DNA of 64,000 nt from a virus: positions 2,647-66,646 of the IMG/VR virus record IMGVR_UViG_3300049149_000013. One strand, given 5' to 3'. Below are positions 1,240 through 63,706 of the stretch, piece after piece (within the stretch, counting starts at the first letter, position 1; every line of letters starts with the position of its first letter). A program made the translations under genes and the position numbers. The notes beneath the pieces were generated by a model. That model was not told where the DNA came from and made no database searches. It saw nothing but the letters and a program-made list of their open reading frames with translations.

Positions 1240-2562
1240 ATGATGAGAATAGCGTTCTGCACTACTTGTAAAGGGCGGGCACATCACGTAGCACGGACGT
1301 TACCAATCAACTTAGCTGACAACGACGATTACCAGGATTGCGTATTCGTCATCGTAGATTATGGTAGTCCCGATGGACTGATCGACTACCTGCGGAAGAA
1401 CCACGAGAAAGAACTTCAGAGTAACAGGGTGGTAGTCTACTCTGCTCCCAACGCGGGTCCGTTCCGAATGGCGCATGCGAAGAATATGGCTCACCGTCTT
1501 GGGATTCACGAAGGAGCCAAGATCCTCTGCAACCTGGATGCCGATAATATGACCGGCAAAGGATTTGCCAAGTATATAGCCAACCACTTTACGATGGAAG
1601 GTATGGATACCTTTCTCTGGGCGCGAATGATTCCCGGCGTATTCGCCCGGGGTATCTCAGGGAGGATTGTAGTGCCTGCGCAGATGTTCCTTAAGGCAGG
1701 TGGCTATAACGAGCAGTTTGAGAACTGGGGTCCGGACGACAAGGATTTTAACGCGCGGCTCTCCCGTATGAACTACCGACCCTTTGAGATTCCCGGGGAC
1801 TATCTGAAAGGCATCAAGCACGATGATAGAATCCGGTTCAAGGAGTATCCGCACGTTCGCCCGCCGCCGGATAGCTCGCAGGAACAACCCATCGATCCCT
1901 GCGCGCCGAATATCTCCAATAACGGCAACATCGGTTGCGGCGTGGTTAAGAGCCTCTGGCATCGTATGACCTTGCCGCTCGGGCATATCGCCACGCGGGT
2001 TTTCGGCATTGGCATGCACAAGACCGGCACGACCTCGCTATGCGCAGCGCTAACCATGCTCGGCATGGATTGCTCGCACTGGACGACGGCTCGCCATGCC
2101 CGTACGATCTGGGAACAGATGAGAGCCGAGGGTCATTCGGTAGAGCTGGAACGCTACTACGCGGCCACCGATCTTCCCATCTCCCTGCTATACAAGGAAC
2201 TCGACCGAGCTTACCCGGGATCGAAATTCATCCTAACCCTGAGACCCGAAGAACAATGGCTAGACAGCATAGAGGCTCACTTTAGTGAACGTAACCCGTA
2301 CCGCAATACTTGGGATATTGATTGTTTTACTCATCGCGTACATCGTGAACTCTACGGACGAAAGACCTTCGACCGACAAACCATGCACGATGCTTACATC
2401 AAACATAATCGCGAAGTGTTAGATTACTTTCGCAACCGGCCTCACGATCTACTGTTAGTTCATATGGATAGCAACAGTATTTGGCCTAAGCTTTGCGGTT
2501 TCCTAGGCGCGGTATGCCCGGGAGATCCCTACCCTCGGGAGAATATGACACGCGCTAGCTAA
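1240..2562 (+). CDS. GT-A/GT2 glycosyltransferase fused to a sulfotransferase domain
   Basis: N-terminal VDYGSPDG, DAD and GGYNE..ENWGPDDKD motifs; C-terminal FGIGMHKTGTTSL (PAPS-binding), YPGSKFILTLR and WPKLCGFLG. Confidence 0.85.
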   Translation: MMRIAFCTTCKGRAHHVARTLPINLADNDDYQDCVFVIVDYGSPDGLIDYLRKNHEKELQSNRVVVYSAPNAGPFRMAHAKNMAHRLGIHEGAKILCNLDADNMTGKGFAKYIANHFTMEGMDTFLWARMIPGVFARGISGRIVVPAQMFLKAGGYNEQFENWGPDDKDFNARLSRMNYRPFEIPGDYLKGIKHDDRIRFKEYPHVRPPPDSSQEQPIDPCAPNISNNGNIGCGVVKSLWHRMTLPLGHIATRVFGIGMHKTGTTSLCAALTMLGMDCSHWTTARHARTIWEQMRAEGHSVELERYYAATDLPISLLYKELDRAYPGSKFILTLRPEEQWLDSIEAHFSERNPYRNTWDIDCFTHRVHRELYGRKTFDRQTMHDAYIKHNREVLDYFRNRPHDLLLVHMDSNSIWPKLCGFLGAVCPGDPYPRENMTRAS

Positions 2563-2866: not shown

Positions 2867-3517
2867 ATGAATAAGTTGGTAGTCCTGGCGGCTGCTGCAA
2901 TGATGGGAACTGCCGCCGCCCATGCTACGGAGGTGTTATCGTTCGGCCAGAGCGTCGCTGGTTCCGCGCCTATTACAGGTACGGAATCCGGAGGCGTCAC
3001 GACCATAATGGCGAACGCTGCACCTATCTCCTTGACGTCCTGTCTCTTGTGCTCGACGATCATCGGCTCTGAGACCCTGACCCTTGATGCGACGAGTGTC
3101 GGACCGGCGTTCAGCTTCCACGGCTTCGTGGTGCAGAACTTCACTGGCACTTTTGAGATTCTGTCGTCTACGGGTCAGAATATCCTTTCGGGATCGTTCA
3201 GCGATGCAACGTTTGGCGCAGGAACAAGTCTCACGCTCTCGGCATCAAATGCCTTCAATGGGGAAACGTTGACCTTCACGTCAGGCGTGATTAAATCATC
3301 GATTCTCGATCCGAAGGCAATGAGCTTGAGTCTTGCGGACGTTACTCCATTCGTAGGCACGACTGACGGATCGCTATCATCCTTCACAGGATCGATTGCG
3401 GGTACCTTTAGTGCCTCACCCCGGGTAACGGGAGTTCCAGAGCCAGGAGCGGCATCGATGATGCTGCTTGGGCTTGCGGGAATCGGCGTTGCCGCATGGA
3501 GACGGAGACGTAAGTAA
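2867..3517 (+). CDS. PEP-CTERM sorting-domain protein (Ser/Thr-rich)
   Basis: Signal peptide ending in AHA; C-terminal VPEPGAASMMLLGLAGIGVAAWRRRRK. Confidence 0.92.
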   Translation: MNKLVVLAAAAMMGTAAAHATEVLSFGQSVAGSAPITGTESGGVTTIMANAAPISLTSCLLCSTIIGSETLTLDATSVGPAFSFHGFVVQNFTGTFEILSSTGQNILSGSFSDATFGAGTSLTLSASNAFNGETLTFTSGVIKSSILDPKAMSLSLADVTPFVGTTDGSLSSFTGSIAGTFSASPRVTGVPEPGAASMMLLGLAGIGVAAWRRRRK

Positions 3518-4059: not shown

Positions 4060-5315
4060 ACCTTAAAGCTTCCCAGCCGTTCCTTCGACCGGTTAATCGA
4101 TTGATTGATATTACGCATTGCTCCAGGTAGCGGTATGCGCGGCCTGCGAGCACCAGGGAACCCCGCATGTTGCCCTGCCATCGGTCCGCTTATTAGGCTT
4201 TGCAGGGGTGAAGGCGGACGCATCATTTGCCCGGGCATCTGGCCTGGCAGCGTCGGCATTCCTCCGGGGGGCGATATCCTACCGCCTCGTGCCCTCATCC
4301 CAGCGCGCATTCCCTGGAACGGCATCGGACGCATCATGCCAGGATGCACCATCGGTGGGCGCATTGCCGGAGCACGCCCGATACCTCCCTGCTGCGCTGC
4401 CGCTAGTTGTGGGCCTAGCTGACTAAGCATGCCACCTGCCATCGGTGGGCGAACGCCTCCAGCCGCCACACCGCCCGGGCCTAGCTGGAAGGGATTACCA
4501 CCCGTAACATTACCCATGCCACTAGGTCCGCCCGCAGGACCCGCATTCCATGCCCCCCCTGGACCAAATCCTTGCATCGGTCCCGCGCCTCCCGCTCCTG
4601 CCCCCATTATGCTACCTATATTACCAAATGCTCCACCACCGGATACCGGCCCCGCCTGCGGTCCACCAGGAGGAGTTGGCGTAGGCGGAGGAGACATCAT
4701 TCCACCGAGTGCTCCGCCACCTCCCGGCGGCATCTGTACGGGTCCACTAAACCCACCGCGCATGCTAGGTGGCAAGTTATTATTCTGCTGAATAAGCGAA
4801 GACCAGAGACTAGGCGGAATGCCCGTAGGTGGGGGTTGATTCGGATCTGCGTACCCGAAGCTCCCCGGACCCTGCGGCACCGCTGTACCTGCTCCACCAG
4901 CTCCTCCGAACAAACCTCCAAAGCCCGTAGCACCAGGATTAGCATTCTTAAGGTTAGCGATCATGCTAGCCAGATCGGGTGTAGCCTGCTGAGGAGGCTT
5001 ATATCCTGGTTGAGCCATAGGAGACCTAGGATCGAGCGTACTGCCGAAATACCCAGGACTACCGGGACCGGATGTCGGGAAGCCCCCGCCACCAGTAGGA
5101 GGTTGATTTAGAGCGGTACCTGCGGCTCCGAGACCGGCAGCCATACCGCCTAACTGATACTTCTTGCGGCCTTTCATTGCGCGACTTAACATAGCCGATC
5201 CTTTATCAGCTTGGTTGAATTCTGACGATACTTTCTGTGGTGGGCAGGATTCGTAGCCAGCACCATGCGAGCATGCTGCCATAAACCGTGCCTGCTCCGG
5301 TGTCTTGCTAGGCAT
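4056..5315 (-). CDS. Gly/Pro/Met-rich putative internal virion protein
   Basis: Last gene of the late arm; MPSKTPEQARFMAA N-terminus; YQLGG and ARGG motifs; low complexity. Confidence 0.7.
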   Translation of the reverse strand: MPSKTPEQARFMAACSHGAGYESCPPQKVSSEFNQADKGSAMLSRAMKGRKKYQLGGMAAGLGAAGTALNQPPTGGGGFPTSGPGSPGYFGSTLDPRSPMAQPGYKPPQQATPDLASMIANLKNANPGATGFGGLFGGAGGAGTAVPQGPGSFGYADPNQPPPTGIPPSLWSSLIQQNNNLPPSMRGGFSGPVQMPPGGGGALGGMMSPPPTPTPPGGPQAGPVSGGGAFGNIGSIMGAGAGGAGPMQGFGPGGAWNAGPAGGPSGMGNVTGGNPFQLGPGGVAAGGVRPPMAGGMLSQLGPQLAAAQQGGIGRAPAMRPPMVHPGMMRPMPFQGMRAGMRARGGRISPPGGMPTLPGQMPGQMMRPPSPLQSLISGPMAGQHAGFPGARRPRIPLPGAMRNINQSINRSKERLGSFKV

Positions 5316-5995
5316 TACTTTAAATCCTTCGGGTCAAAAACCGCGAGTGAGTTTAGATCATTCCTACCTGCTAGTTCGTCAGTTCCCATAAAATCCCGGT
5401 AATAGGCTGAATCATAACCTAACCCTTGCAAACGTTCTTGCATCTTCAGCAACTCGGGCGTACTCAGATTAATACCCATTGTAATCGATCTACGGGGCAG
5501 ACGGTCTATGTAAGTAAACCCTCGACTTGGTTCCCATTCAGGATCAGCAGCCAGGAACTTAGCTAGATTCTGTCCACTAGGCGCGAAGCGATCCGCGCGT
5601 TCCATTACGGCTTGTCGTAGCTGAGGATTATCCGAAAGCGCTGTCGAGAGCATATCATGGTAAAGGTCCCTTCCCATATTCCCAGGCAAGAGGGAAAGTG
5701 GATTTGATACATTAGGGTTAACCTCGAACACCTTATAACCTCGACCCCGATCCGCCGCTATCGCCGCTGCATGCTCGGGATGCTCCGCCAAATGCACAGC
5801 TCCAGGCAGAAGTGTGCCTCGTTCTCCAGGTATAATTCTAGTAAAGGTAGTAGGATCTGTTTTTCCCCCATGATACCATGGATGGCTCTGGATCTCCTCT
5901 AGTAACTGAGCTAGTCTCTCAGCTACGTTTACCTCGCCTCCGCCCGCGAAGTAACCCCCTAGCAGGACCACCCTGCGCCATTGCCGGTTCCTCAT
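5315..5995 (-). CDS. ADP-ribosyltransferase-like (ART-PolyVal-type) domain, probably the frameshifted C-terminus of the upstream large protein
   Basis: WYHG...GAVHLA...NPL...GYDS...LAVFDPKDLK pattern; FAGGGEVNVAERLAQL near its start matches MAGGGEIGLAERLAQL in the upstream ORF. Confidence 0.6.
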   Translation of the reverse strand: MRNRQWRRVVLLGGYFAGGGEVNVAERLAQLLEEIQSHPWYHGGKTDPTTFTRIIPGERGTLLPGAVHLAEHPEHAAAIAADRGRGYKVFEVNPNVSNPLSLLPGNMGRDLYHDMLSTALSDNPQLRQAVMERADRFAPSGQNLAKFLAADPEWEPSRGFTYIDRLPRRSITMGINLSTPELLKMQERLQGLGYDSAYYRDFMGTDELAGRNDLNSLAVFDPKDLK

Positions 5996-8900
5996 CCTCA
6001 GGCTGCGGCTGATACTCCTTCTGCATCCTGCCCAGATCCCGATTCGTCATCCTGCCCATAGCCTGCATAGCTATCTCACGACCCAGGGGAGCTTCCATCT
6101 CCTCCTGAGCCTCCGCTACATCGTCCGAGGTAAAGTGAATCGGCGCAGACGGACCGAAATAATTCTCATGCTTACCTATCAGCTCCTTCAGGCGCTCAAG
6201 CAGATCCCGATGAGCGTCTGCTCGCTGCTGAGTCTCTATCTCGTCATCGGACATTGCAGGCTCGGCGGGCGGAGGAGGTTCCCCCGGCTGACCTCCAATA
6301 GTCGGATGTTGCAGGGTGTGAAGTCTATTCCTCGTAGCTTCCCAGTCTATCCCACCACCCTCAGCCATCCCTCCCCCGCCCCCATCATCTACTCCCGAGG
6401 TTCCCGGCACGGTCGTATAGAGCGCAGGCGAACCATACATGTGTTTAAAGTGACCGCCTCTCGCCTGACCCGGAGGCTTATCATAGATGCTAGTCCAATT
6501 GCGGCTCTGAATATCCTTAGCATGCTCTGCCATCTCAGGACTGGTCTCGGCTACCTGGGTAAAGATATCCTGAGGCTTTGCTTCTGTTGCCCAGCCCCGG
6601 TTAAGGACATCGGCAGCATGGGCCTTCATCTCCGGGCTTGAGGTAAGTTTCTCCCAGAGCTGGGCGAGCCTCTCAGCAAGGCCGATCTCTCCACCCCCTG
6701 CCATGCGGGGAGGCGGCGCGCTCTGCCCCATAAACATTCGACGCTGGAGCAACTGATCTAAGAAGTTTTCCTCGGTCTCAGGAGGTGGGGTCTGCCCGCC
6801 TTCCGCCATGCCTGCCGTTACCGGACTTCCGCCCGGGAAGTGAACTGTCTGACCTTCATCTAGGCCACGCAGATGCCGTTGATAGGCTTCGTCGCCAATC
6901 TCCTTCTGGATATCCTTGCCGACGCTGGTATCTTCCGGTTCAACCGAGTTCGGGTCCGGTCCCTGATGCCTGGCATGTTCGATCATTTGTTCGGGACGCA
7001 TCCGGCCTCCACCGCCTCCACCCCTAAGTCGGTCGAGCGCATCCCCTGCCGAGCCTATCAGCGCGTTAAGGCTACCCCATTCGGTAGCCATTGCCGGCCA
7101 ACTACGCAACGGGGAAGCTCCTAGCCAACCCATTAAATGAGAACCTGCACCTTCGGCAGGAAGGCCCGGGATCGGGATAACCGCTGAAGGAGCTTCCTCA
7201 AAGAAATGTTGCTTAAACGTATGGGCTGGCGGTAATCCTACGCTACGTTGGATCTTCCCCTCAAGAGCCTCGGCCCGCTCACCTGCCGCTTTCGATCCAG
7301 GCATCATCGAGGAGATTGGATGACCCTTCGATTCGTCACCTAGGTTAGCTCCCAGCAATCTAGCCGGTAGTGTGGCATATCCCTCGAATAGCCGAGCGAG
7401 GGCATGAGGTGTCGAGTATAGCCTATCGAGTATCAGGGGAGGTGTAGACCCCGGACCGGGATGGAGAATATCCCCTCCTGCCACCAGATGACCTTGCGGA
7501 TCAGTACCATAAACCTGTTTTGCCAACGAGGTAACGGCACGCGCCGCAAGTTCCCCGGGAGGATTATCGGGGTCATCGTACTTAGCTGGATCTGTTCCAG
7601 CTGCCTTCATCTCCGCTGCCGCCTCGGCCTCTCTCTCAGCAATTGATCTCTGAACTCTATTTCTCAAAGCCGTAAGCGATGATTCGTAATCCGGCTGATA
7701 GTTCGCCGGGATACCCTCGTTACCCTTAATCGTTGGTCCGGTAATAAGGTCTGACAGGGAAGGACCACCTTCCTGGAAATGCTTGCGGGTCATCGGATTA
7801 GAGGTATAGGTTGGCTTCTGCTCCTCCTCGGATGCCTGCGCCAGCATATACTCCTGCATTTTCTTCAGAAGTTCCTTATGAGCTTCCTGTTCTTCGCCAG
7901 GTACTTGCCTCTCACTCTCAACTAGAACATTCTCAAGACTCGGCTGATCCCCTGTTGTCGAACCACCCTCGGCATGCTCGGTTACGGCAGGAGTCTTACC
8001 GGCTGCGGCCATACGGTCGTAGATTAGATCCTCAGGGTTAATACCGGACTGCTGCAACTGATTGCCTACCTGGCGGATATGGGCGGCATCGGCATCCTGG
8101 ATTTCCCCGACCGGCGTACGCATGAAATCATGGTACCTTTCGAGGAAGTGCTCAATAAGCTCGGAGAGGTTCACTGCGGTCTTAACCTCACCGCCCCCGG
8201 CCATGCCATGCTGCTGCCGTTCGTCCTCGCGCGAGACGAGGTAATCAGTGCTATACCCTAAGTGATGAAGGGCATGTCTTAGATGGTCCACTGGACCTCC
8301 GTGCTTCCAGACCGGTACGCCTGCTGCCTTAACGCGCGCTAAGTCATCTGGATTAGTCATATCAATTGCATTCTCAAATGTCTTTTTACGAAGTGGGTTC
8401 TGTTCAGGAGGCGCTTTATAAGTTTGCTCGTACCAGTCCCAGAGCGGACGCATCGACTCACCGGCCTCGCGGGATGCTTGCTCCCAGTTATAGTGCATAT
8501 TCTGGTAAGCACGGGAACGCTGCATATCCGCCCATGCCTGCTGATTCTTCGGCTCATCTTCTACCCAGTTATCCTCCTCATCGTAGTGGCCACTCTCCCG
8601 AGGACGGTACTGCATTTCTACATCATTAATTTCTTTGGCATGTTTGCGCATATCCGCAATAGCCTTATAAAACTTATCCTCCATCGTTCCTTCTGCGGCG
8701 GGAACGTCTTCACCAGTTTCGGGATTAAAGGCACCTAATCCCATCTCCTCACGTTTCTCTACTGGAACCTTATCAACCATATGCTGCCAGAGCCGTTCGT
8801 ACTTGCCTGGAACCTCGTACCTATTCCATTCATCGCCCTCGGCGTTTAGAACCTGGCGGATATAGTTATCAAGTGTCGGGTGGGCCCAATCGGGCACGTC

Positions 8901-55826: not shown

Positions 55827-56357
55827 GTGAGCATAATAATTGTCGAAGGGCCGGATGGTGCGGGCAAGACTACCCTTATCCGTCGGTTACGAGAGGAGTC
55901 CAAAACGTACTTCTGGGTAGCCTCAAGCTCCGGTCGGCCTAAAACTCTAGTTCAACTCCAAGATGCCTTGCACTGGATTGCACAGAGCACATACCTCGGT
56001 ACGCCGATAGTCTGCGACCGACTTCCCCTCATCTCCGAGTCTGTATATGGTCCTATTCTTCGGGACCAATGCCTGCTAGATCAAATGGGACATAGAGAGC
56101 AGGGCGCAGCCTCGGACCTTCTGCGGCAGATCGATAGGGTCATATACTGCCGTCCTACCATAGAAACAATCAGAAGAAACCTAATCACTAGTGCCTTACC
56201 TCAACTGCATGGTGTAGTAGAAAAGCTGGATGCCTTGGTAGCACGTTACGATGAGTTAATGGACTCTCTCAGGGACGATAATATCTTTGTTCATAAGTAC
56301 GATTACCTGGCTAACTATGGTAAACCACTTGACGAGATATTCTTTGGGAGGATTTAG
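55827..56357 (+). CDS. dNMP (thymidylate-like) kinase
   Basis: IIVEGPDGAGKTT P-loop; CDR...SESVYGPILR. Confidence 0.85.
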   Translation: MSIIIVEGPDGAGKTTLIRRLREESKTYFWVASSSGRPKTLVQLQDALHWIAQSTYLGTPIVCDRLPLISESVYGPILRDQCLLDQMGHREQGAASDLLRQIDRVIYCRPTIETIRRNLITSALPQLHGVVEKLDALVARYDELMDSLRDDNIFVHKYDYLANYGKPLDEIFFGRI

Positions 56358-56980
56358 TGGATAAACTGAACGAAATCTTTCAGAGGCAAGCTGTATACGT
56401 ACGTGCTCTGACACCTACCTACCTGAGCAATGGCTTCGACTGGCACCACCGGCCTCTGCCGTGGGATCTGAGCGGACGCAAGGCGCAGGAAGAGTTCAGA
56501 CTACTGGCGTGGAGGTTTACAGAGGAGCTTATCGAAGCGCAGGAAACGTATGAATGTCATAGACATAAGGGATTCCCAGAACTATATGCTGAAGAAATGG
56601 CAGATGCTCTTCACTTCTTCGTAGAACTCTGCCTGGCGAGCGGTATCCTAGAGCATGAACTATTGCAAGGAAATACATTCGACGGAATCTTTCTACGGCA
56701 AGATTCAGCGGTAATTGAGGAACCTTGGGCTAATACGATCCGTGCGCTCGGTCTTGCAATGATGAGCTTACGTCAGCGTCCTTGGCGTACCGATTACCGG
56801 GAGACGGACAGAGCGCGTTGGGTCCTGGGCATGCACCTAGCGTTCAAAGCATTCGCGAGGGCATGCACCGATACCGGCATCACACCCGATATGCTCTACA
56901 TCGCGTATTTCAGGAAATCAAAAGTCAACGACCTCCGGATAGAACAATACGGGGTATTGCCGCATGGCTATACTCTCTGA
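56357..56980 (+). CDS. All-alpha NTP pyrophosphatase (dimeric dUTPase/MazG-like)
   Basis: EELIEA...EEMADALHF; PW motif; YFRKSKVN..R. Confidence 0.8.
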   Translation: MDKLNEIFQRQAVYVRALTPTYLSNGFDWHHRPLPWDLSGRKAQEEFRLLAWRFTEELIEAQETYECHRHKGFPELYAEEMADALHFFVELCLASGILEHELLQGNTFDGIFLRQDSAVIEEPWANTIRALGLAMMSLRQRPWRTDYRETDRARWVLGMHLAFKAFARACTDTGITPDMLYIAYFRKSKVNDLRIEQYGVLPHGYTL

Positions 56981-57761
56981 TTTAAAGTGGGGAATACCGC
57001 TGTACCTAGAGGCGGCGGAAGCGGAAACGGCAGGCTATCAGGCTATAGGCAAGGTGGTTCAGGATATCACCTATACGATGAGCAGTCTTCCTGGCTGGAC
57101 CCTAGCGGATTGGGGTTACGGATCAAATAAACACGCACAGTTAGAGAGGAACTATGTCAACCCGGAAGAATTTCACAGAGTCCGAGCTGTCCTTGCTCGA
57201 AGAGACCTTGGCAAATATACCTCCGTGGCGGTCTCTCTGCGCGGCAAGCCGAAGGATACCAGATCTCAGGGGTGGTGCATGCTATCTCTGGTTATATCGC
57301 GGACAAAGGAGTGGACTCGGGTCGAAGTGCAGTACCGCACGACGGAACTCATCCTCAAGTTTGCGGCAGACGTTTGGTTTTTGGGGGTACTTTGCGAGCA
57401 ACTCAAAATAGAGCCGGAGCGTTTCACGTTCCGCTTCGCCAACTGTGCTCTATCAGGCGCATATTTCCCCTACCTCATCGATAAGACTGACCTGGTGCGG
57501 TTCCTTGCTCGCATCAAGGAGGCAGATGAGGATTTCTTTTTTCGTACCACGCGATTCCTACTCAAAGCGAGTTATCGGAAGGATCAATATCATCCGTTCT
57601 CGCCCGAACGGGTCTCGCATCGTTACCTTTGGGAGCGGGGGACAGCACGGCAGATCCAATCAGTCAGAGATTATCTGGAACCTCTGCATCGTACCACTGG
57701 CCGCCCGCTCCCGAAGGACTTTCACGATAAATCCTACATACCGAAAGGACAACGCATATGA
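56964..57761 (+). CDS. Divergent thymidylate-synthase-fold protein (paralog 1)
   Basis: WCMLSL...QYRTTELILKFAADV aligns to the TS pattern C...YxRSxD-x7-N/D. Confidence 0.55.
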   Translation: MAILSDLKWGIPLYLEAAEAETAGYQAIGKVVQDITYTMSSLPGWTLADWGYGSNKHAQLERNYVNPEEFHRVRAVLARRDLGKYTSVAVSLRGKPKDTRSQGWCMLSLVISRTKEWTRVEVQYRTTELILKFAADVWFLGVLCEQLKIEPERFTFRFANCALSGAYFPYLIDKTDLVRFLARIKEADEDFFFRTTRFLLKASYRKDQYHPFSPERVSHRYLWERGTARQIQSVRDYLEPLHRTTGRPLPKDFHDKSYIPKGQRI

Positions 57762-58129
57762 AGATCTGCCTGATAGGTTCCTCGCGCTTTGTCGAGCAGT
57801 ATAATGAGATAAACCGCAAGCTGACCCTAGCCGGTCATGTGGTCTATTCGATTGCTACGGTATCATCGGCCTCCGGAAAACTTCAGACGCAGAAGCAACT
57901 CACCGAGGATGAGAAGGAGACCATAGATCTAGTCCACCTCCTGAAAATCCAAGAATCGGATGCGTGCTTCCTGGTTACTGATGAAACTAAGTACGTAGGC
58001 GAATCTACCCGCAGGGAAATCAAGTGGGCAGTAATGCAGGATATGGCTGTCTTAACGCATGCAGATTTGGACTATTTGCTAGATAATATCCGCGAGGGGA
58101 TGCCGGACCTAGGGAAGCCAGAGGAATGA
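57758..58129 (+). CDS. Nucleoside 2-deoxyribosyltransferase-like Rossmannoid protein
   Basis: KICLIGSSRF...L...GHVV...KI.ESDA..V....YVGESTRREI.WA. Confidence 0.7.
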   Translation: MKICLIGSSRFVEQYNEINRKLTLAGHVVYSIATVSSASGKLQTQKQLTEDEKETIDLVHLLKIQESDACFLVTDETKYVGESTRREIKWAVMQDMAVLTHADLDYLLDNIREGMPDLGKPEE

Positions 58130-58923
58130 GATACTTCAGTAGCTTTAAAGAGGCACATAGACAGCTAACGCAGGACTTCGCAGATCGTGCGTACCTGGTA
58201 CATACCGATAAGTGGCAGGCGCTTCAAATATCTGACAAGCCTGAGATGGCGATGCGAGAGCTGTTCAATGTTAGTTTCTCGGTACCGACGAGGGGTAATG
58301 AGGAGATCGTTTATTGGCAGAAGGACATACTGCCCAACCTGCCTTTCGCTGACCAGCATTTTGAGGAGCGCGTCTCGGGGATCGGTAGTAATCCTGGCAA
58401 GGCTTGGAAGATCTGGCCGTGGGGGCATTCTGCGGACGCGCATCGCACTCAGAACGGGCGATATACGCATACTTACCAGGAGCGGTTCTGGCCGAATAAC
58501 CTAGAGGACGAAGATGCCCGACCAGATGGTATACGCTATCGTTATGGCGATTACGGCGACCTGCTTAATCATCTTCGCATGGACCCTCTTAGTCGTCAAG
58601 CTTATCTTCCGATCTGGTTTCCGGAAGATGGCGCTTGCGATGGCAGAAAGCCGTGTACGCTCGGGTACCACTTCCTTATGCGGCACGATTTCCTCCATCT
58701 CACGTACTACATCCGAAGTTGTGATTTCGTTCGACACTGGCGAGATGATTGCTATCTCGCGGTCCGTTTATTGGTGGAAACCCTCCGAAGGTTACGCGAG
58801 CTGGATAGCGATTGGGGAAGTGTTAAACCGGGATTCTACGTAATGCACATAGTTTCACTTCATATGTTTATCAACGATTATGCAAAAATCCAAAAATCAG
58901 TTCAAAGCATTGCTCTTCGGTGA
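58126..58923 (+). CDS. Thymidylate synthase family enzyme (dNMP C5-transferase / hydroxymethylase-like)
   Basis: HFEERV, TYQERFW, SRQAYLPIW, KPCTLGYHF and YIRSCDFVRHWRDD. Confidence 0.85.
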   Translation: MRYFSSFKEAHRQLTQDFADRAYLVHTDKWQALQISDKPEMAMRELFNVSFSVPTRGNEEIVYWQKDILPNLPFADQHFEERVSGIGSNPGKAWKIWPWGHSADAHRTQNGRYTHTYQERFWPNNLEDEDARPDGIRYRYGDYGDLLNHLRMDPLSRQAYLPIWFPEDGACDGRKPCTLGYHFLMRHDFLHLTYYIRSCDFVRHWRDDCYLAVRLLVETLRRLRELDSDWGSVKPGFYVMHIVSLHMFINDYAKIQKSVQSIALR

Positions 58924-59350
58924 TGATGATCGAGGCTTCTTCCAGGTATGGCAATCTAACGAGCATGAACGCTTGCAAGTATGGGTATTCGGTAAGCGCG
59001 GCTCGACTAAGCTGGTCCGGCAGTTTCGAGTAGAGGACTGGGACCCCGAGATTGAGAGTCTAGATGAAGCTATTGCGATATGTAGGCGTGGGAAGAAGCG
59101 GCGCTGTATTGGGCTACCCAGAACCTACGTCTATCGCGGACCTCTGGACACACTTAGTTCCCGATTACCAGTCACGAAACTACGGTCCCGCGATATTCAG
59201 AATCCTTTGGGATCGAAAGGTGGCAAAGGAGCTAGGATCGATCAGTCAAAGAAGGTATTCGTCAAGGTTAAGGAACTACCTGATACCCGAGGAGTTGGAA
59301 AGAGTATCCGCCAAGCTTCAAAAGGGCGAAGCATCCATAAGGTTCGGTAA
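58880..59350 (+). CDS. Hypothetical protein (overlaps the next gene)
   Basis: Fills the 58923-59064 gap; 3' half overlaps paralog 3. Confidence 0.35.
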   Translation: MQKSKNQFKALLFGDDDRGFFQVWQSNEHERLQVWVFGKRGSTKLVRQFRVEDWDPEIESLDEAIAICRRGKKRRCIGLPRTYVYRGPLDTLSSRLPVTKLRSRDIQNPLGSKGGKGARIDQSKKVFVKVKELPDTRGVGKSIRQASKGRSIHKVR

Positions 59351-59621
59351 CTTAAAGGAAGGTCACGGATATAACGGTGAGCGCGGAGACTTCTGTATGG
59401 TAGCAGGGGTTATTGATCGCAGGCATGCCGTTATGTATTATCGCAGCCTAGAGCTGATAGGAGGATTCGCTTACGACCTTGCATTGCTGGCCTACCTAGA
59501 GGAGACACTTCGATGTAACTGGAAAGATATCACTTTCATAACTCATAAGGCTTTCATATTCGCCCTGAAAGGGAACTCGAATGAGAAGCTTTATCCAAAG
59601 CTTAGAAGAATATTGGACTGA
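59064..59621 (+). CDS. Divergent thymidylate-synthase-fold protein (paralog 3)
   Basis: DFCMVAG...YYRSLELIGGFAYDL. Confidence 0.55.
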   Translation: MKLLRYVGVGRSGAVLGYPEPTSIADLWTHLVPDYQSRNYGPAIFRILWDRKVAKELGSISQRRYSSRLRNYLIPEELERVSAKLQKGEASIRFGNLKEGHGYNGERGDFCMVAGVIDRRHAVMYYRSLELIGGFAYDLALLAYLEETLRCNWKDITFITHKAFIFALKGNSNEKLYPKLRRILD

Positions 59622-59767
59622 CTCTATCCATTTCCTCTTGCAGCGTGGCTGCGCGGTGATATGCGTGAAATTCTATATATGGTTTTGGGGTGCCCTCGTT
59701 GTAGGGTTCCTCTTCGGTTGGATGGCACGAACCCGACTTTGGCATTGGGATGAGGAGGAGAGGCAAC

Positions 59768-60235
59768 ATGACCCAGCAGCACCACCAGAGGACAAGGATC
59801 AGCCGCGATGACGCGCTAATGCAAATCGCGGAACTAATGTCTGAGCGCTCTACGTGTTTAAGATTGCAGGTGGGAGCGCTTGTCGCCCGGGAGGGGCGTA
59901 TTCTTGTGACCGGCTATAACGGCGCACCTTCGGGCGTGCCTCATTGTTCATCCGATACCTGCGGCGAGCGTCTGCCCTGCATCCGAGCAGTTCACGCCGA
60001 GGCTAATTGTATGGCCTTTGCCGCCAAGCACGGTATCCAGCTAGACGGCGCAGAGATGTATACTACCGACTCGCCATGCATAAATTGCGCCCACTTAATC
60101 ATTAACGCTGGGATCGCTTGCGTAACATATATGCGTGAGTACCGGGATAAGTCCCCAATCGACTGGCTGCATATGGCAGGGATTAAGACTCGCTTCCATG
60201 AGTGGGTACTCCAGAAGCGAATGGAACATGACTGA
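59768..60235 (+). CDS. dCMP deaminase
   Basis: RSTC.R.QVGA, TGYNGAPSG, HAEAN and SPCINCA. Confidence 0.92.
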   Translation: MTQQHHQRTRISRDDALMQIAELMSERSTCLRLQVGALVAREGRILVTGYNGAPSGVPHCSSDTCGERLPCIRAVHAEANCMAFAAKHGIQLDGAEMYTTDSPCINCAHLIINAGIACVTYMREYRDKSPIDWLHMAGIKTRFHEWVLQKRMEHD

Positions 60236-62744
60236 TCTTTTTCCAGAAGAGCCACGTCTCTTCGATCATAACTGCAAGCGCTGCCCGCTGCATAAGGGGG
60301 TAAAAAGTGTCTGCATCAAAGGCGACGGTCCTCAGGATGCGGAGGTCATCGTCATCGGAGAAGCGCCGGGAGGACACGAGGATCGTCAGGGAAAACCATT
60401 TGTTGGTCCAAGCGGTCAGCTATTACGGCATGAGCTTAGTAGCGCGGGCTTCAAGTCGGCATACTTCACTAATGTTGTTAAGTGTCGCCCTCCCGGCAAC
60501 CGTGATCCTACCCCTGCTGAGATCAAGTCTTGCCGTCATTACCTGGATGCCGAGCTACTTGCTATCAAAGCGAAGTACATTATTACGGCTGGACGTTTCT
60601 CTAGTAAGAGCGTTCTTAAAAGAGCCAAGATTACTCAGCAACATGGAGAAATCGTTGAACTCAATGGCAAAAGAGGTATGCCGCTTTACCACCCCGCGTA
60701 TTGCCTCAGGGACCCCTCGAAACTTCCCGCATTCAGACAAGACCTTAAACGCCTTCGTAATATCATCGACGAGGTTGCAGTTGGAGAGTTACCTAACTGG
60801 GAGATTATTCAGGACCCCGAAGCCCTCGAAAAGTTCATCCTTAGTTTCCAGGACGCGGAGGAGTTCAGCTACGACCTCGAAACGACGGGCCTATTCCCGT
60901 ACAACCGCAAAGGCGCGATCCGCTGCATCAGCATAGGTCTGGTAGACTGCGCCTATGTAATACCCCTGGAAATGCCAGGATCGATATTCCTCGGCAATCA
61001 CGAAGCGCAAGTGGCTTTCCTCCGATTGCTAGTTCAGATCGCGAACATCACCGAGAAGATAGCCATAGCTCAAAACGGTAAGTTCGATCAGCACTGGCAA
61101 AATCTAGTGCTCGGCTGCCGTTTCGAGCTTCACTTCGATACAATGCTCGCCTCTCACGTTATAGATGAGAACGAGGATCATGATCTCAAATATCTCGCGC
61201 GGAGGTGGCTCGATGCTCCTGATTACGACATACCGAAGAAAGAAAAACAAGGGAAGTTCCTTCACATTCCTGAAAAGCGGCTTGGGTATCTCCGCTATGC
61301 CGCATTTGACGCTGCATACACATTTGCCCTCTTCTGGGTCTTCCGCGAGAAGCTTCTGGAAGATCACGGGGTCCGCAGGCTGTTCTATAAGATCGTCATG
61401 CCCGCCTCCCGCGCGCTTGAGAAGATTGAAAGGCGGGGTCTTACCTTGGACCTCGATAGATATGCGCAGGTTGAAAAGGAAGTACGCAAGGAAAAACAGA
61501 AGGCTCTTGAGAATCTCAATTCGCTTGCTGGTAGGATCAATTGGAACTCTCCGCAGCAGATCCGGAAACTACTATACGAAAACCTCAAGCTTCGGACGAC
61601 TGTTAAGACAGCGAAAGGTCAGCCGAGCACGGGTGAAGACGCTATTGTCGAACTCCGTGCACAGCATCCGGTTGCGGAAGCATTAGTGAAATATCGTGAA
61701 CTGGAGAAATATTATGGCACGTATATCGAAGGCTGGAAAGAGTTTACTCACCAAGGGAGACTATACCTTAGCTATAAAATCCACGGAACCGTTACAGGAC
61801 GATATTCTAGCCGCATTCACCAAGTCCCACGGGATGGAACTATACGCAACCTTATTACTGCCCCAAGGGGATGGCAATTCGCTCAAGCTGACCTTTCCCA
61901 AGCGGAACTTAGGATTGCAGCTGAGCTTTCCCGTGATCTTGAACTCGTTACCTGCTTTCGACCAGGCGGACAAGATGTTCACTGGCGCACATTGCTCTAT
62001 ATGGTGGGGAGCGGGCGCTCCAAAGAATACTACGACCCCGCGATTCGTACCGCTCGGGAGCTAGGTGGTTATGGAAAGCTTAACCTTACTGACGCGATTG
62101 AAATTCTGGGAAAGGCGGGACACTCGAAAGCTATTGAAATATGGAAGCCCTGGAAGGAGGGCCGCAAGAAGGCTAAGGCAATTAACTTCGGATTCGTCTT
62201 TGGGATGTATGAGAATAAGTTCATTCAGCAGGCTAAGACGAAATATCAATGGGACTGCACCTACGAGGAGGCCCAAGCTTTTAGGCAAGCCTATTTTGAA
62301 CTCTATCGTGGCATACCTCCTTGGCATGATAAGCAGAAAGCGCTCGTACGCTCCGATGGTTATGTTCGAAATCTATTCGGGCGGCTGCGTCGTTTACCTG
62401 GGATATATTCGTCGGACAAAGAGCTTCGGTCAGAATGCGAGAGGCAGGCGATCAATGCGCCGGTACAGGGAACTATCGGGGATTGGAAAGCCGCAGCACT
62501 TATTGAGATCGAAGAGTCTATTCCACACGATCAGCTTAGAATCGTCGGGGAGCATCACGATGCTCTTCTCATAATTTTCCGGGATGAGTTCCGTGATTTG
62601 GTATTGCCGCGAGTTCGTGCTATAATGCGCCGGCCAAAGCTTCTTGACATATTTAAGGTGAAAACCGCTGTCCCGATGGATTCTGAAATAGAAATCGGTA
62701 ATTGGGGAGCAGGTAAAGCCTACGAGGATCCACCATGCCAATAA
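60228..62744 (+). CDS. polA: Family A DNA polymerase with an N-terminal uracil-DNA-glycosylase (family 4-like) domain and a 3'-5' exonuclease
   Basis: UDG: CKRC, GEAPG, KCRPPGNR, YHPAY. Exonuclease: DLETT, NGKFD, YAAFD. Polymerase: DLSQAELR, KAINFG, HHDA. Confidence 0.93.
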   Translation: MTDLFPEEPRLFDHNCKRCPLHKGVKSVCIKGDGPQDAEVIVIGEAPGGHEDRQGKPFVGPSGQLLRHELSSAGFKSAYFTNVVKCRPPGNRDPTPAEIKSCRHYLDAELLAIKAKYIITAGRFSSKSVLKRAKITQQHGEIVELNGKRGMPLYHPAYCLRDPSKLPAFRQDLKRLRNIIDEVAVGELPNWEIIQDPEALEKFILSFQDAEEFSYDLETTGLFPYNRKGAIRCISIGLVDCAYVIPLEMPGSIFLGNHEAQVAFLRLLVQIANITEKIAIAQNGKFDQHWQNLVLGCRFELHFDTMLASHVIDENEDHDLKYLARRWLDAPDYDIPKKEKQGKFLHIPEKRLGYLRYAAFDAAYTFALFWVFREKLLEDHGVRRLFYKIVMPASRALEKIERRGLTLDLDRYAQVEKEVRKEKQKALENLNSLAGRINWNSPQQIRKLLYENLKLRTTVKTAKGQPSTGEDAIVELRAQHPVAEALVKYRELEKYYGTYIEGWKEFTHQGRLYLSYKIHGTVTGRYSSRIHQVPRDGTIRNLITAPRGWQFAQADLSQAELRIAAELSRDLELVTCFRPGGQDVHWRTLLYMVGSGRSKEYYDPAIRTARELGGYGKLNLTDAIEILGKAGHSKAIEIWKPWKEGRKKAKAINFGFVFGMYENKFIQQAKTKYQWDCTYEEAQAFRQAYFELYRGIPPWHDKQKALVRSDGYVRNLFGRLRRLPGIYSSDKELRSECERQAINAPVQGTIGDWKAAALIEIEESIPHDQLRIVGEHHDALLIIFRDEFRDLVLPRVRAIMRRPKLLDIFKVKTAVPMDSEIEIGNWGAGKAYEDPPCQ

Positions 62745-63706
62745 CCGGCTTTTCAATGGTCAAAAGCTACCGTCGGTGCCCGAAACAGTATGAGTACAAG
62801 TACATTCAAAATCTCCAGCGCATTATGCCTCCTCCTCCTCTTATCAGGGGTAGTATTATTCACGAGATACTGGATATGCGAGCTGTACCGGGAGGGACAA
62901 AGGGGTACAAGAGCGTGCTCACCAAGTACGAGGAGAAATACGGCACCCTGTTCAAAGAGGAGCAGGAGATGTACGGGGATGACTTTCTGGCGAACATTGA
63001 ACGGGTCTATCAAGGTTATCTTCGGGAGTGGGACGATACGGACCTCGAATATATGTCATCAGAAGAGTTTATTTCTACGCCGCTCGTGGGTGACATCCTC
63101 TTCCAAGGTCATATCGATAAACGAATATTCAAAGATGGGCGTATGTGGGTTATGGACCACAAGACGCACAAGAACATCCCTACGGAGGAACAGAGGTTTA
63201 ACGACTACCAGCTCCTGATGTACGTATGGGCGTATAACCGTGAGCACCCTAAAGATAAAGTTGACGGGGTTATTTGGGACTATATTCGCACTAAGCCCCC
63301 GACGATTCCAGAGGTACTTCAGAAGGGTGGCCTATCGCAAGCGAAGAATATTGATACGGATGTTTATACGTACACCAAGGAACTCGTTAGGCATCGACTT
63401 GACCAGAAACCGTACAGAGTCTTCCTCGCAGAACTCGCCAAAAGGTCTCGGGGGAAGTTTTATCAGAGAGTATATCTCCCAGCTCCTACGAAGGCGATGA
63501 TGGAGCAGGTAGTTCAGGACTTCGCGCAGTCGTCTCAGATCATGCATGGCCTCGGGATCTATCCGCGTAGTCCCTCGCGCGAATGCAGCTGGTGTGAGTA
63601 TTACCGGATCTGTAATGCCGAGCTTCGCGGCCTGGACCACAAGTTTATCCGTGAGTCTGAATATAAGGTTGAAGAGGTGAGCGGTGATACCGCCGAGGAG
63701 GATTAA
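62735..63706 (+). CDS. Cas4-like / PD-(D/E)XK exonuclease
   Basis: RCP...GSIIHEIL, GHID...DHKT, QLLMY and CSWCEYY..C. Confidence 0.85.
   Translation: MPITGFSMVKSYRRCPKQYEYKYIQNLQRIMPPPPLIRGSIIHEILDMRAVPGGTKGYKSVLTKYEEKYGTLFKEEQEMYGDDFLANIERVYQGYLREWDDTDLEYMSSEEFISTPLVGDILFQGHIDKRIFKDGRMWVMDHKTHKNIPTEEQRFNDYQLLMYVWAYNREHPKDKVDGVIWDYIRTKPPTIPEVLQKGGLSQAKNIDTDVYTYTKELVRHRLDQKPYRVFLAELAKRSRGKFYQRVYLPAPTKAMMEQVVQDFAQSSQIMHGLGIYPRSPSRECSWCEYYRICNAELRGLDHKFIRESEYKVEEVSGDTAEED

Follow-up and report, generated by a model that had tools for sequence, protein, structure and literature searches.

A candidate pre-replicative cytosine-modification operon with a tail-less thymidylate synthase homolog and two predicted thymidylate synthase-fold companions in a tailed phage

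What does a phage do with three genes that bear the marks of thymidylate synthase (TS) in a single nucleotide-metabolism operon? This question is raised by a stretch of 64,000 nucleotides (the window), bases 2647-66646 of the IMG/VR record IMGVR_UViG_3300049149_000013, which comprises 66,646 bases with a CheckV completeness of 100% and whose identity as a tailed phage is confirmed by terminase, tail-fibre and primase genes. A first-pass annotation, made by a model from the sequence alone, had described three TS-fold paralogs here and proposed a pathway to a non-canonical pyrimidine for the phage DNA. Our analysis leads us to favour, with a probability of roughly 55%, an early nucleotide-metabolism and replication operon that makes C5-modified dCTP before replication, replacing or supplementing dCTP. 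The argument turns on three open reading frames (ORFs), one of which is a recognisable TS homolog (hereafter the main TS, and with its relatives the TS clade).

56964-57761, plus strand: ORF A, a divergent protein of 265 amino acids with a predicted TS fold (AlphaFold2 model, VIA-align, Foldseek, phrog_34294)
58126-58923, plus strand: the main TS, a tail-less TS homolog of 265 amino acids (phrog_160, PF00303, ThyA matches in the PDB, MAFFT)
59064-59621, plus strand: ORF B, a minimal paralog of ORF A with a predicted TS fold, 185 amino acids (AlphaFold2 model, Foldseek, hhalign)

The main TS is a divergent member of the TS family by sequence, and the family assignment made at first pass is borne out by matches to phrog_160 (‘thymidylate synthase’, 2.2e-25) and to ThyA chains in the PDB (from 5e-4). 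Its match to Pfam PF00303 (E 6.9e-5, 22.6 bits versus a cut-off of 24.3 bits) is confined to residues 117-202, and the same cut-off is passed by the clade TS of four of five related records. The core motifs are KPC(177)TLGYHF and IR(197)SCD(200)FVRHWRDD(208), with the codon of C177 at 58654-58656 and that of D208 at 58747-58749. The main TS was aligned by MAFFT with seven clade relatives, Escherichia coli ThyA, T4 gp42 and PaMx74 ThyA, the E. coli numbering of R166 and N177 being that given in the available part of PMC13326640. The stretch from R166 to N177 is ungapped in this alignment, and D208 falls on E. coli N177, on D179 of T4 gp42 and on an Asp of PaMx74 ThyA; the position is Asp in all eight clade proteins, T4 gp42 and PaMx74 ThyA, and Asn in E. 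coli. D208 is invariant (31 of 31 TS family members), as are P176-C177, R197-S198-C199-D200, H246 and R157, which align with the catalytic residues of E. coli, including the partner-subunit Arg126. Gln158 stands at the R127 position, and H246 and F248 are the equivalents of H207 and Y209. According to the accessible text of two studies, an N177D exchange shifts preference to dCMP, and D179 is the key determinant in T4 dCMP hydroxymethylase (dCH; PMC13326640, PMC6400193).

Two further features of the main TS bear on its chemistry. Asp169 is retained as D200, and the protein is therefore not a D169N 5-hydroxy-dCMP synthase. In addition, its C-terminus lies 19 residues past H246 (the H207 equivalent), whereas E. 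coli ThyA extends far beyond this point. As far as the available text of PMC6400193 goes, the C-terminal tail of TS seals the active site for hydride transfer, T4 dCH is without this tail, and dihydrofolate reductase (DHFR) is required only by methylating TS. Searches of the complete genome found neither DHFR nor ThyX nor a further match to PF00303, and DHFR was found in none of five related complete records. By contrast, PaMx74, which carries 5-methylcytosine (5mC) according to the accessible part of a preprint (bioRxiv 10.1101/2024.12.05.627091), encodes a long-tailed ThyA next to frd. As a separate observation, in a 406-amino-acid relative of the main TS (P0343) the TS domain is preceded, in a single ORF, by a LAGLIDADG endonuclease domain (1.2e-4), which suggests an intein or a homing-endonuclease insertion in that TS gene.

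The two neighbours of the main TS share its core motif, at the positions originally listed for all three genes: a Cys, then an Arg, with Asp or Glu at +3 and Asp at +11 from the Arg. The residues are C105 (57276-57278), Y124-R125 (R125 at 57336-57338), E128 and D136 (57369-57371) in ORF A, and C111 (59394-59396), Y126-R127 (R127 at 59442-59444), E130 and D138 (59475-59477) in ORF B. Cys and Arg are separated by 20 residues in the main TS and ORF A and by 16 in ORF B, and the Arg-to-Asp spacing of +11 in all three equals that from R166 to N177 in E. coli. The pattern C-x(15-20)-R-x2-[DE]-x7-D, which was defined after the fact, occurs in 3 of the 164 six-frame ORFs of at least 100 amino acids in the window, exactly these three genes; residue shuffles of the same ORF set gave a mean of 1.0 match and a maximum of 5 in 200 shuffles. 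The first-pass annotation had placed an Asp at the N177 position in all three proteins. For the main TS this is the MAFFT result described above, and for D136 of ORF A and D138 of ORF B the putative equivalence is read from motif register and secondary-structure order. In both proteins the Cys opens a strand, a hairpin follows, the Arg closes the next strand and the Asp lies early in the following helix. The same order surrounds the Cys, Arg and Asp in the TS topology.

Sequence comparison identifies ORF A and ORF B as mutual paralogs (BLASTP 2e-8; hhalign probability 96%, E 2.4e-9), and their family hidden Markov models (HMMs) cross-match each other's gene in related loci. Each is a real and conserved gene, matched at E <=1e-3 by 171 database proteins for ORF A and 321 for ORF B; ORF A belongs to phrog_34294 (‘unknown function’) and to no Pfam family, and its relatives form 334 clusters at 50% identity. 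Structure prediction, a check named at first pass, gave confident models for both divergent ORFs, and the experimental structures listed as their matches are all of the TS family, so that both proteins are predicted to have the TS fold. The AlphaFold2 model of ORF A (pLDDT, the per-residue confidence, 91.2; pTM, the predicted TM-score, 0.88) has an extra C-terminal helical part at about residues 177-265. VIA-align placed it at Z 12.7 to 9iqu, the dCMP hydroxylase of phage HY126 (root-mean-square deviation 3.3 A over 166 aligned residues), at Z 11.4 to MilA and at 10.1-10.9 to many ThyA chains, with Z >=8 for 396 of 1000 chains. Among the Foldseek matches listed for ORF A, all are TS, T4 dCMP hydroxymethylase or AfhB. 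In a library of predicted viral structures its nearest neighbours are uncharacterized phage proteins (TM 0.78 for one from PMBT14), followed by TS and dCMP hydroxymethylases. The ORF B model (pLDDT 89.0) gave 356 Foldseek matches at E <=1e-3, and all those listed are TS, MilA or AfhB (from E 4.7e-6; TM-score normalised to the query, TMq, 0.36-0.56). The only other lead to TS for ORF A and ORF B came from the ESM Atlas, in a cluster (score 0.93) in which 13% of members carry PF00303.

The conservation pattern of ORF A argues for a nucleotide-binding, probably catalytic protein rather than a decayed duplicate. Across 40 relatives with a mean identity of 23%, the residues K56, Y64, G103, C105, Y124, R125, E128, K132 and D136 are invariant, and by register these include the positions of the nucleophile, the phosphate-binding Arg, Asp169, Gly173 and Asn177; Gly173 of ThyA is close to the substrate C5 in the available description (PMC13326640). 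The Asp169 position is occupied, again by motif register, by Glu in ORF A (E128) and ORF B (E130), with Asn in neither. Together with the lack of a recognisable folate-binding sequence in both proteins, this suggests that they use a co-substrate other than folate. Their ligand is most likely a nucleotide of the type used by the main TS (dCMP-type), and the two proteins may be partner subunits of the TS or enzymes of a further C5/C6 step with a different cofactor. A complex prediction for the TS and ORF A families, run without controls, scored 0.00 against a mark of 0.32 and is evidence neither way. Seven long relatives of ORF A were searched for domain fusions, and none was found.

The three genes lie in a tightly packed plus-strand operon at 55827-63706, in the order kinase, hydrolase, ORF A, 123-amino-acid gene, main TS, ORF B, deaminase, PolA and nuclease, with 4-base start/stop overlaps linking ORF A, the 123-amino-acid gene and the main TS. 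The other members are as follows.

55827-56357, plus strand: dNMP (thymidylate-type) kinase, 176 amino acids, P-loop GPDGAGKTT (phrog_761)
56357-56980, plus strand: all-alpha NTP pyrophosphohydrolase of the MazG / dimeric-dUTPase type, 207 amino acids (phrog_12184, phrog_173, dUTPase_2)
57758-58129, plus strand: 123-amino-acid protein, possibly similar to nucleoside deoxyribosyltransferase (NDT) / dNMP N-hydrolase (weak; tblastn and ESM Atlas leads)
59750-60235, plus strand: dCMP/dCTP-type deaminase, 161 amino acids (PF00383, MafB19-deam, phrog_174)
60135-62744, plus strand: family A DNA polymerase (PolA) with a 3'-5' exonuclease and an N-terminal domain of the uracil-DNA glycosylase (UDG) superfamily (Pfam)
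62735-63706, plus strand: PD-(D/E)XK (Cas4/RecB-like) exonuclease, the end of the conserved module (PF12705, phrog_1218)

The whole cluster gave no blastn match among phage records. A tblastn search found the TS clade in 117 phage records (Gordonia 68, Clostridium 10, Mycobacterium 9, Serratia 6, Pseudomonas 5 and others), against 26 for ORF A and 7 for ORF B. We compared 16 loci, comprising four annotated phages picked from the tblastn lists and 12 IMG/VR contigs found via ORF A. All 16 hold a clade TS and PolA, and 15 have the deaminase between them. In 15 loci ORF A, recognised by its family model (A1 HMM), stands directly upstream of the TS on the same strand; the 16th, that of Gordonia phage Yakult, has a remote ORF A relative in this place (hhalign 88%, HMM E 2.1e-3). 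The kinase occupies the same position in 14 loci, and the remaining two are cut there. ORF B was found in 9 of the 16 and the 123-amino-acid gene in 7, only where ORF B is present (both in 7, ORF B alone in 2, the 123-amino-acid gene alone in 0, neither in 7), and we speculate that the two form an accessory sub-module, for example one that sanitises an unwanted by-product nucleotide. Four further phages were chosen via the TS alone, namely Yersinia P744, Microbacterium Huwbert, Streptomyces Zuko and Mycobacterium NoShow, and all four have, in this order, a kinase, a dUTPase/MazG gene, an unnamed gene, the TS, a deaminase and PolA. The unnamed gene is the sole match to the ORF A profile at each of these loci (E 1.6e-59 to 1.8e-3; the search space was small). 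Directly upstream of the clade TS there is thus an ORF A-like gene in 20 of 20 loci, five of which were selected independently of ORF A. It is ORF A, not ORF B, that is the constant partner of the TS clade, and ORF B is optional.

The module of kinase, NTP pyrophosphatase, ORF A, TS, deaminase, UDG-PolA and nuclease is found again in phages whose hosts are Proteobacteria, Actinobacteria and Clostridium. Two ORF A relatives carry the automatic annotation ‘pyrimidine hmase synthase’, and the fold resemblance has therefore already been caught by pipelines. In open-access PMC and bioRxiv texts we found no paper on the ORF A/ORF B family and none on DNA modification in Serbin, PMBT14 or the actinophages. 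The available part of a report on Serratia phage Serbin (MK608336; PMC6509536) describes 22 proteins common with 9g/CAjan-type phages, the lack of their queuosine (7-deazaguanine) cluster and the presence of the kinase/TS/deaminase set; one DNA-modification module may have been swapped for another on a related backbone. The single distant ORF A members P0399 and P0376 yielded no confirmed loci, and a scan of genome contigs returned only two short contigs of metagenome-assembled genomes, without host information. As a side observation, an ORF B homolog, gp44 (hhalign 100%), lies after PolA at 5360-6519 of the Yakult locus, adjoining a gene annotated as a DNA methyltransferase instead of neighbouring the TS.

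Importantly for the function of the TS clade, canonical enzymes coexist with it in two phages, a full-length ThyA (PF00303 3e-121) directly after the clade TS in Huwbert (4959-6604 of the locus) and a ThyX (1.2e-58) in the same module of MW202455 (1839-2495), which argues that the clade TS is more than a dTMP synthase. The gene neighbourhood points the same way as the residues. In the accessible part of the preprint cited above, the combination of an N177D TS, a deaminase, a PRA-PH-type hydrolase and PolA surrounds 104 of 149 deaminases on contigs with predicted modified cytosine versus 17 of 277 on unmodified ones (bioRxiv 10.1101/2024.12.05.627091). The N177D residue, this neighbourhood match and the coexisting ThyA or ThyX make a non-canonical pyrimidine, as proposed at first pass, the most likely purpose of the operon.

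We infer each step of the following pathway from gene identities, residues and synteny, which are themselves observed. The MazG/dUTPase-type hydrolase would convert dCTP (and dUTP) to the monophosphate. Cys177 of the tail-less TS would then attack C6 of dCMP, with Asp208 reading and protonating the cytosine, and a one-carbon unit would pass from methylene-tetrahydrofolate to C5 of dCMP. The intermediate would most likely be hydrated to 5-hydroxymethyl-dCMP, because the main TS ends before the C-terminal tail that would seal its site for hydride transfer, and because DHFR is missing from the phage. The phage dNMP kinase together with a host NDP kinase would raise the product to the triphosphate, the UDG-fused PolA would incorporate it, and the deaminase would supply a thymine branch from dCMP or from the modified cytosine nucleotide. 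ORF A would serve as an obligate companion of the TS clade and ORF B as an optional paralog found with the small NDT-like gene. As to the product, 5-hydroxymethyl-dCMP is the leading candidate at slightly under even odds; a compound other than this and 5-methyl-dCMP is rather unlikely, and 5-methyl-dCMP itself less likely again. A bolder version, which we hold to be distinctly doubtful, makes ORF A (with ORF B in some phages) a new, catalytic TS-fold branch with a changed cofactor, forming with the tail-less TS a two-component system for a C5-modified dCMP that no single TS homolog makes. Such a system might couple folate-dependent one-carbon transfer to a flavin-type reduction, giving 5-methyl-dCMP and no dihydrofolate, or it might re-activate 5-hydroxymethyl-dCMP at C6 and oxidise or substitute it to a so far unseen base; it would be spread over siphophages of at least three bacterial phyla.

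Several results weigh against pre-replicative C5 modification by a hydroxymethylating TS and its TS-fold companions. A HMMER alignment of the main TS to Lactobacillus casei TS opens an 8-residue gap right after RSCD and puts a Leu at the N229/N177 position, with low posterior confidence; the ungapped placement of D208 appears more likely, because the invariant R203, H204 and D208 then stay within the active-site loop and the extra residues go to the following helix and loop. The residue equivalent to L143 is Arg174, invariant in the family, and it departs from both signatures given for this position in the available text of PMC13326640, a bulky hydrophobic residue in methylases and Asp/Glu in hydroxymethylases. 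For the companions, the Foldseek TM-scores are modest (0.36-0.56), and profile searches, also suggested at first pass, supported the homology of ORF A with ORF B and gave no link to TS: none of 40 ORF A relatives matches PF00303, hhalign of the ORF A and ORF B profiles against the TS clade gives a probability of <=0.5%, and the two family profiles matched no TS chain in the PDB. The top non-significant hhalign alignments still place R-x-x-[E/D]-x7-D in register. Finally, 5 of 7 tested N177D enzymes made 5-methyl-dCMP (5mdCMP) and their linked deaminases prefer 5mC, as reported in the accessible part of bioRxiv 10.1101/2024.12.05.627091, and no canonical TS was found in the genome itself or in the five relatives. 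With a constant deaminase beside the clade TS, these last two points favour methyl over hydroxymethyl, and together with the Arg at the L143 position they keep 5-methyl-dCMP or another product well in play.

The chief competitor follows from these last points and has the logic of Xp12: the TS would methylate dCMP to 5-methyl-dCMP, the deaminase would turn part of the 5-methyl-dC nucleotides into dT nucleotides, and the DNA would carry 5mC in place of C, with ORF A perhaps giving the tail-less TS its missing reducing or closing function. The pairing of deaminase and TS in 15 of 16 loci and in all four additional ones fits this scheme well, as do the missing canonical TS and the preprint's 5mdCMP makers. 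We nevertheless regard it as rather unlikely, since the main TS lacks the C-terminal tail and the phage lacks DHFR, both of which go with the ThyA of PaMx74, and since the preprint's screen, as far as its available text shows, needed a PF00303 E of 1e-7, so that the clade, with 6.9e-5 for the main TS, may not be among the tested enzymes.

Another rival is an ordinary supply of dTMP. The TS would then be a divergent dUMP methylase, the kinase, dUTPase and deaminase would boost dTTP, ORF A and ORF B would be decayed duplicates or regulatory subunits, and the DNA would be unmodified. Databases do annotate the set as thymidylate kinase, dUTPase, thymidylate synthase and deaminase, and an active-looking UDG domain on PolA fits plain uracil avoidance. 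However, all aligned clade members have Asp rather than Asn at the N177 position, a canonical ThyA or ThyX stands beside the clade TS in the two phages named above, the tail is missing, and the invariant Cys, Arg and Asp among ORF A relatives at 23% mean identity argue against decay; this account is improbable. More improbable still is a decoy role for ORF A and ORF B, in which they would bind a host protein or poison it, for example by drawing host ThyA into inactive heterodimers, or would sequester a nucleotide. A TS fold without a recognisable folate-binding sequence would suit a decoy, and so would the dispensability of ORF B, which is present in 9 of 16 loci, but neither the nucleophile Cys nor the base-reading Asp varies, and ORF A is fixed directly upstream of one TS clade in phages of three bacterial phyla with unrelated hosts.

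Among the flanking genes, the kinase, all-alpha pyrophosphatase and dCMP deaminase named in the first-pass annotation were each recovered. The kinase matches phrog_761 (‘thymidylate kinase’, 5e-16), with Pfam and NCBIfam matches at P-loop level only. The hydrolase, which we infer to act as a dCTP/dUTP-ase, matches phrog_12184 (2.5e-13), phrog_173 (2.1e-6) and Pfam dUTPase_2 (2.4e-4; 21.8 bits versus a cut-off of 22.9 bits), and the genes in its slot in relatives are annotated as dUTPase, MazG or hydrolase. The deaminase is identified by PF00383 (4.9e-20), MafB19-deam (3.2e-13) and phrog_174 (1.2e-48), and the nuclease by PF12705 (6.1e-21) and phrog_1218 (5.1e-55). PolA combines DNA_pol_A (1.2e-68), UDG (9.2e-31) and DNA_pol_A_exo1 (1.7e-19), and its translation contains GEAPG and HPA motifs, which we take to be family-4 UDG signatures. 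UDG-PolA fusions are described, in the accessible part of PMC13697223, in SP-15-like phages with T-modified DNA. The ‘NDT-like’ label given earlier to the 123-amino-acid protein is weakly suggested by a tblastn match (5e-7) to an Anabaena phage A-1(L) gene annotated as deoxyribosyltransferase and by an ESM Atlas search whose nearest named cluster carries PF05014 (score 0.87); the protein has no match in Pfam, PHROG, NCBIfam or the PDB, and membership of the PF05014 family did not emerge.

Some other features of the window were recorded. Between ORF B and the deaminase, a 76-amino-acid ORF with a strongly hydrophobic stretch (59581-59811, plus strand) runs into the annotated end of each. It possibly encodes a small membrane protein, and the true deaminase start may be further downstream. 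A glycosyltransferase (GT)-sulfotransferase gene at 1240-2562 (plus strand), encoding 440 amino acids with Sulfotransfer_4 (3.3e-34, residues 253-438) behind a GT-A-type piece (Glyco_transf_7C, 3.5e-6), was considered as a DNA-glycosylation step and rejected as part of the module, being found in none of the five related complete records; it is probably an auxiliary gene outside the nucleotide module. A 216-amino-acid protein at 2867-3517 (plus strand) ends in a PEP-CTERM sorting motif (9.7e-7), a host-like feature that hints at a host with an exosortase system. The phage is a soil phage: sequence nearly identical to it occurs in soil metagenomes, with at least half of the sampled words present in 10 of the 16 runs listed.

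Almost every known pathway that modifies a pyrimidine of phage DNA before replication begins with a TS homolog, and TS homologs also provide enzymes for epigenetic sequencing. A catalytic ORF A would add once more to the reactions known for the TS fold, after the recent addition of the flavin-dependent 5-hydroxy-dCMP synthases; an ORF A that serves as a subunit would, to our knowledge, give the first heteromeric TS-type enzyme. Phages of Pseudomonas, Serratia, Gordonia, Mycobacterium smegmatis, Microbacterium and Streptomyces that are in culture and easy to handle carry the module. Which phages have modified cytosine is also relevant to restriction evasion, to the choice of phages for therapy and to bias in sequencing.

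Among known systems, T4 offers the same four functions, with gp42, the gp56 dCTPase, the gp1 dNMP kinase and the cd dCMP deaminase all having counterparts encoded together in the window. The main TS resembles gp42 in the Asp at N177/D179, the retained Asp169 and the missing C-terminal tail. It differs in its low identity, only about 20% to the references from E. coli and T4, in its divergent N-terminal half and in having Arg rather than Asp at the L143/D145 position. Moreover, the hydrolase of the window is of the all-alpha MazG/dUTPase_2 type, not the gp56 type, nothing in T4 corresponds to ORF A or ORF B, and the module includes no conserved DNA glucosyltransferase, the one GT-like gene of the window being absent from the five relatives. 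With Xp12 and PaMx74 the locus shares an N177D TS homolog beside a dCMP-family deaminase, a pyrophosphohydrolase and PolA, whereas PaMx74 has a full-length tailed ThyA beside DHFR, which matches the clade profile at 5e-5, and no ORF A-like gene.

The closest structural comparison for ORF A is with AfhB and RB69 gp48 (PDB 9iqu and 9iqc; Z 12.7 and 12.3), which are also among the top matches of ORF B. These are short TS-fold, flavin-dependent 5-hydroxy-dCMP synthases that act on dCMP with a non-folate cofactor, and D169N is their diagnostic exchange in the available text of PMC13326640. This exchange is absent here, with Asp in the main TS and Glu in ORF A and ORF B at that position; sequence identity to AfhB is about 11%, and the Z margin over MilA (11.4) and ThyA (~10.5) is small, 1 to 2 Z units. 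MilA, the CMP hydroxymethylase (PDB 5b6d, 5jnh), likewise has a TS fold with Asp at the N177 position, is one of the high-ranking structural matches for ORF B (TMq 0.52-0.56) and is matched by the TS clade profile at 3.6e-4, but it is a bacterial antibiotic-pathway enzyme with a ribonucleotide substrate and no phage module context. Compared with the pre-replicative cytosine-modification modules of the T4 and Xp12 types, what is new in this locus is a tail-less TS clade paired with an uncharacterized family of predicted TS fold.

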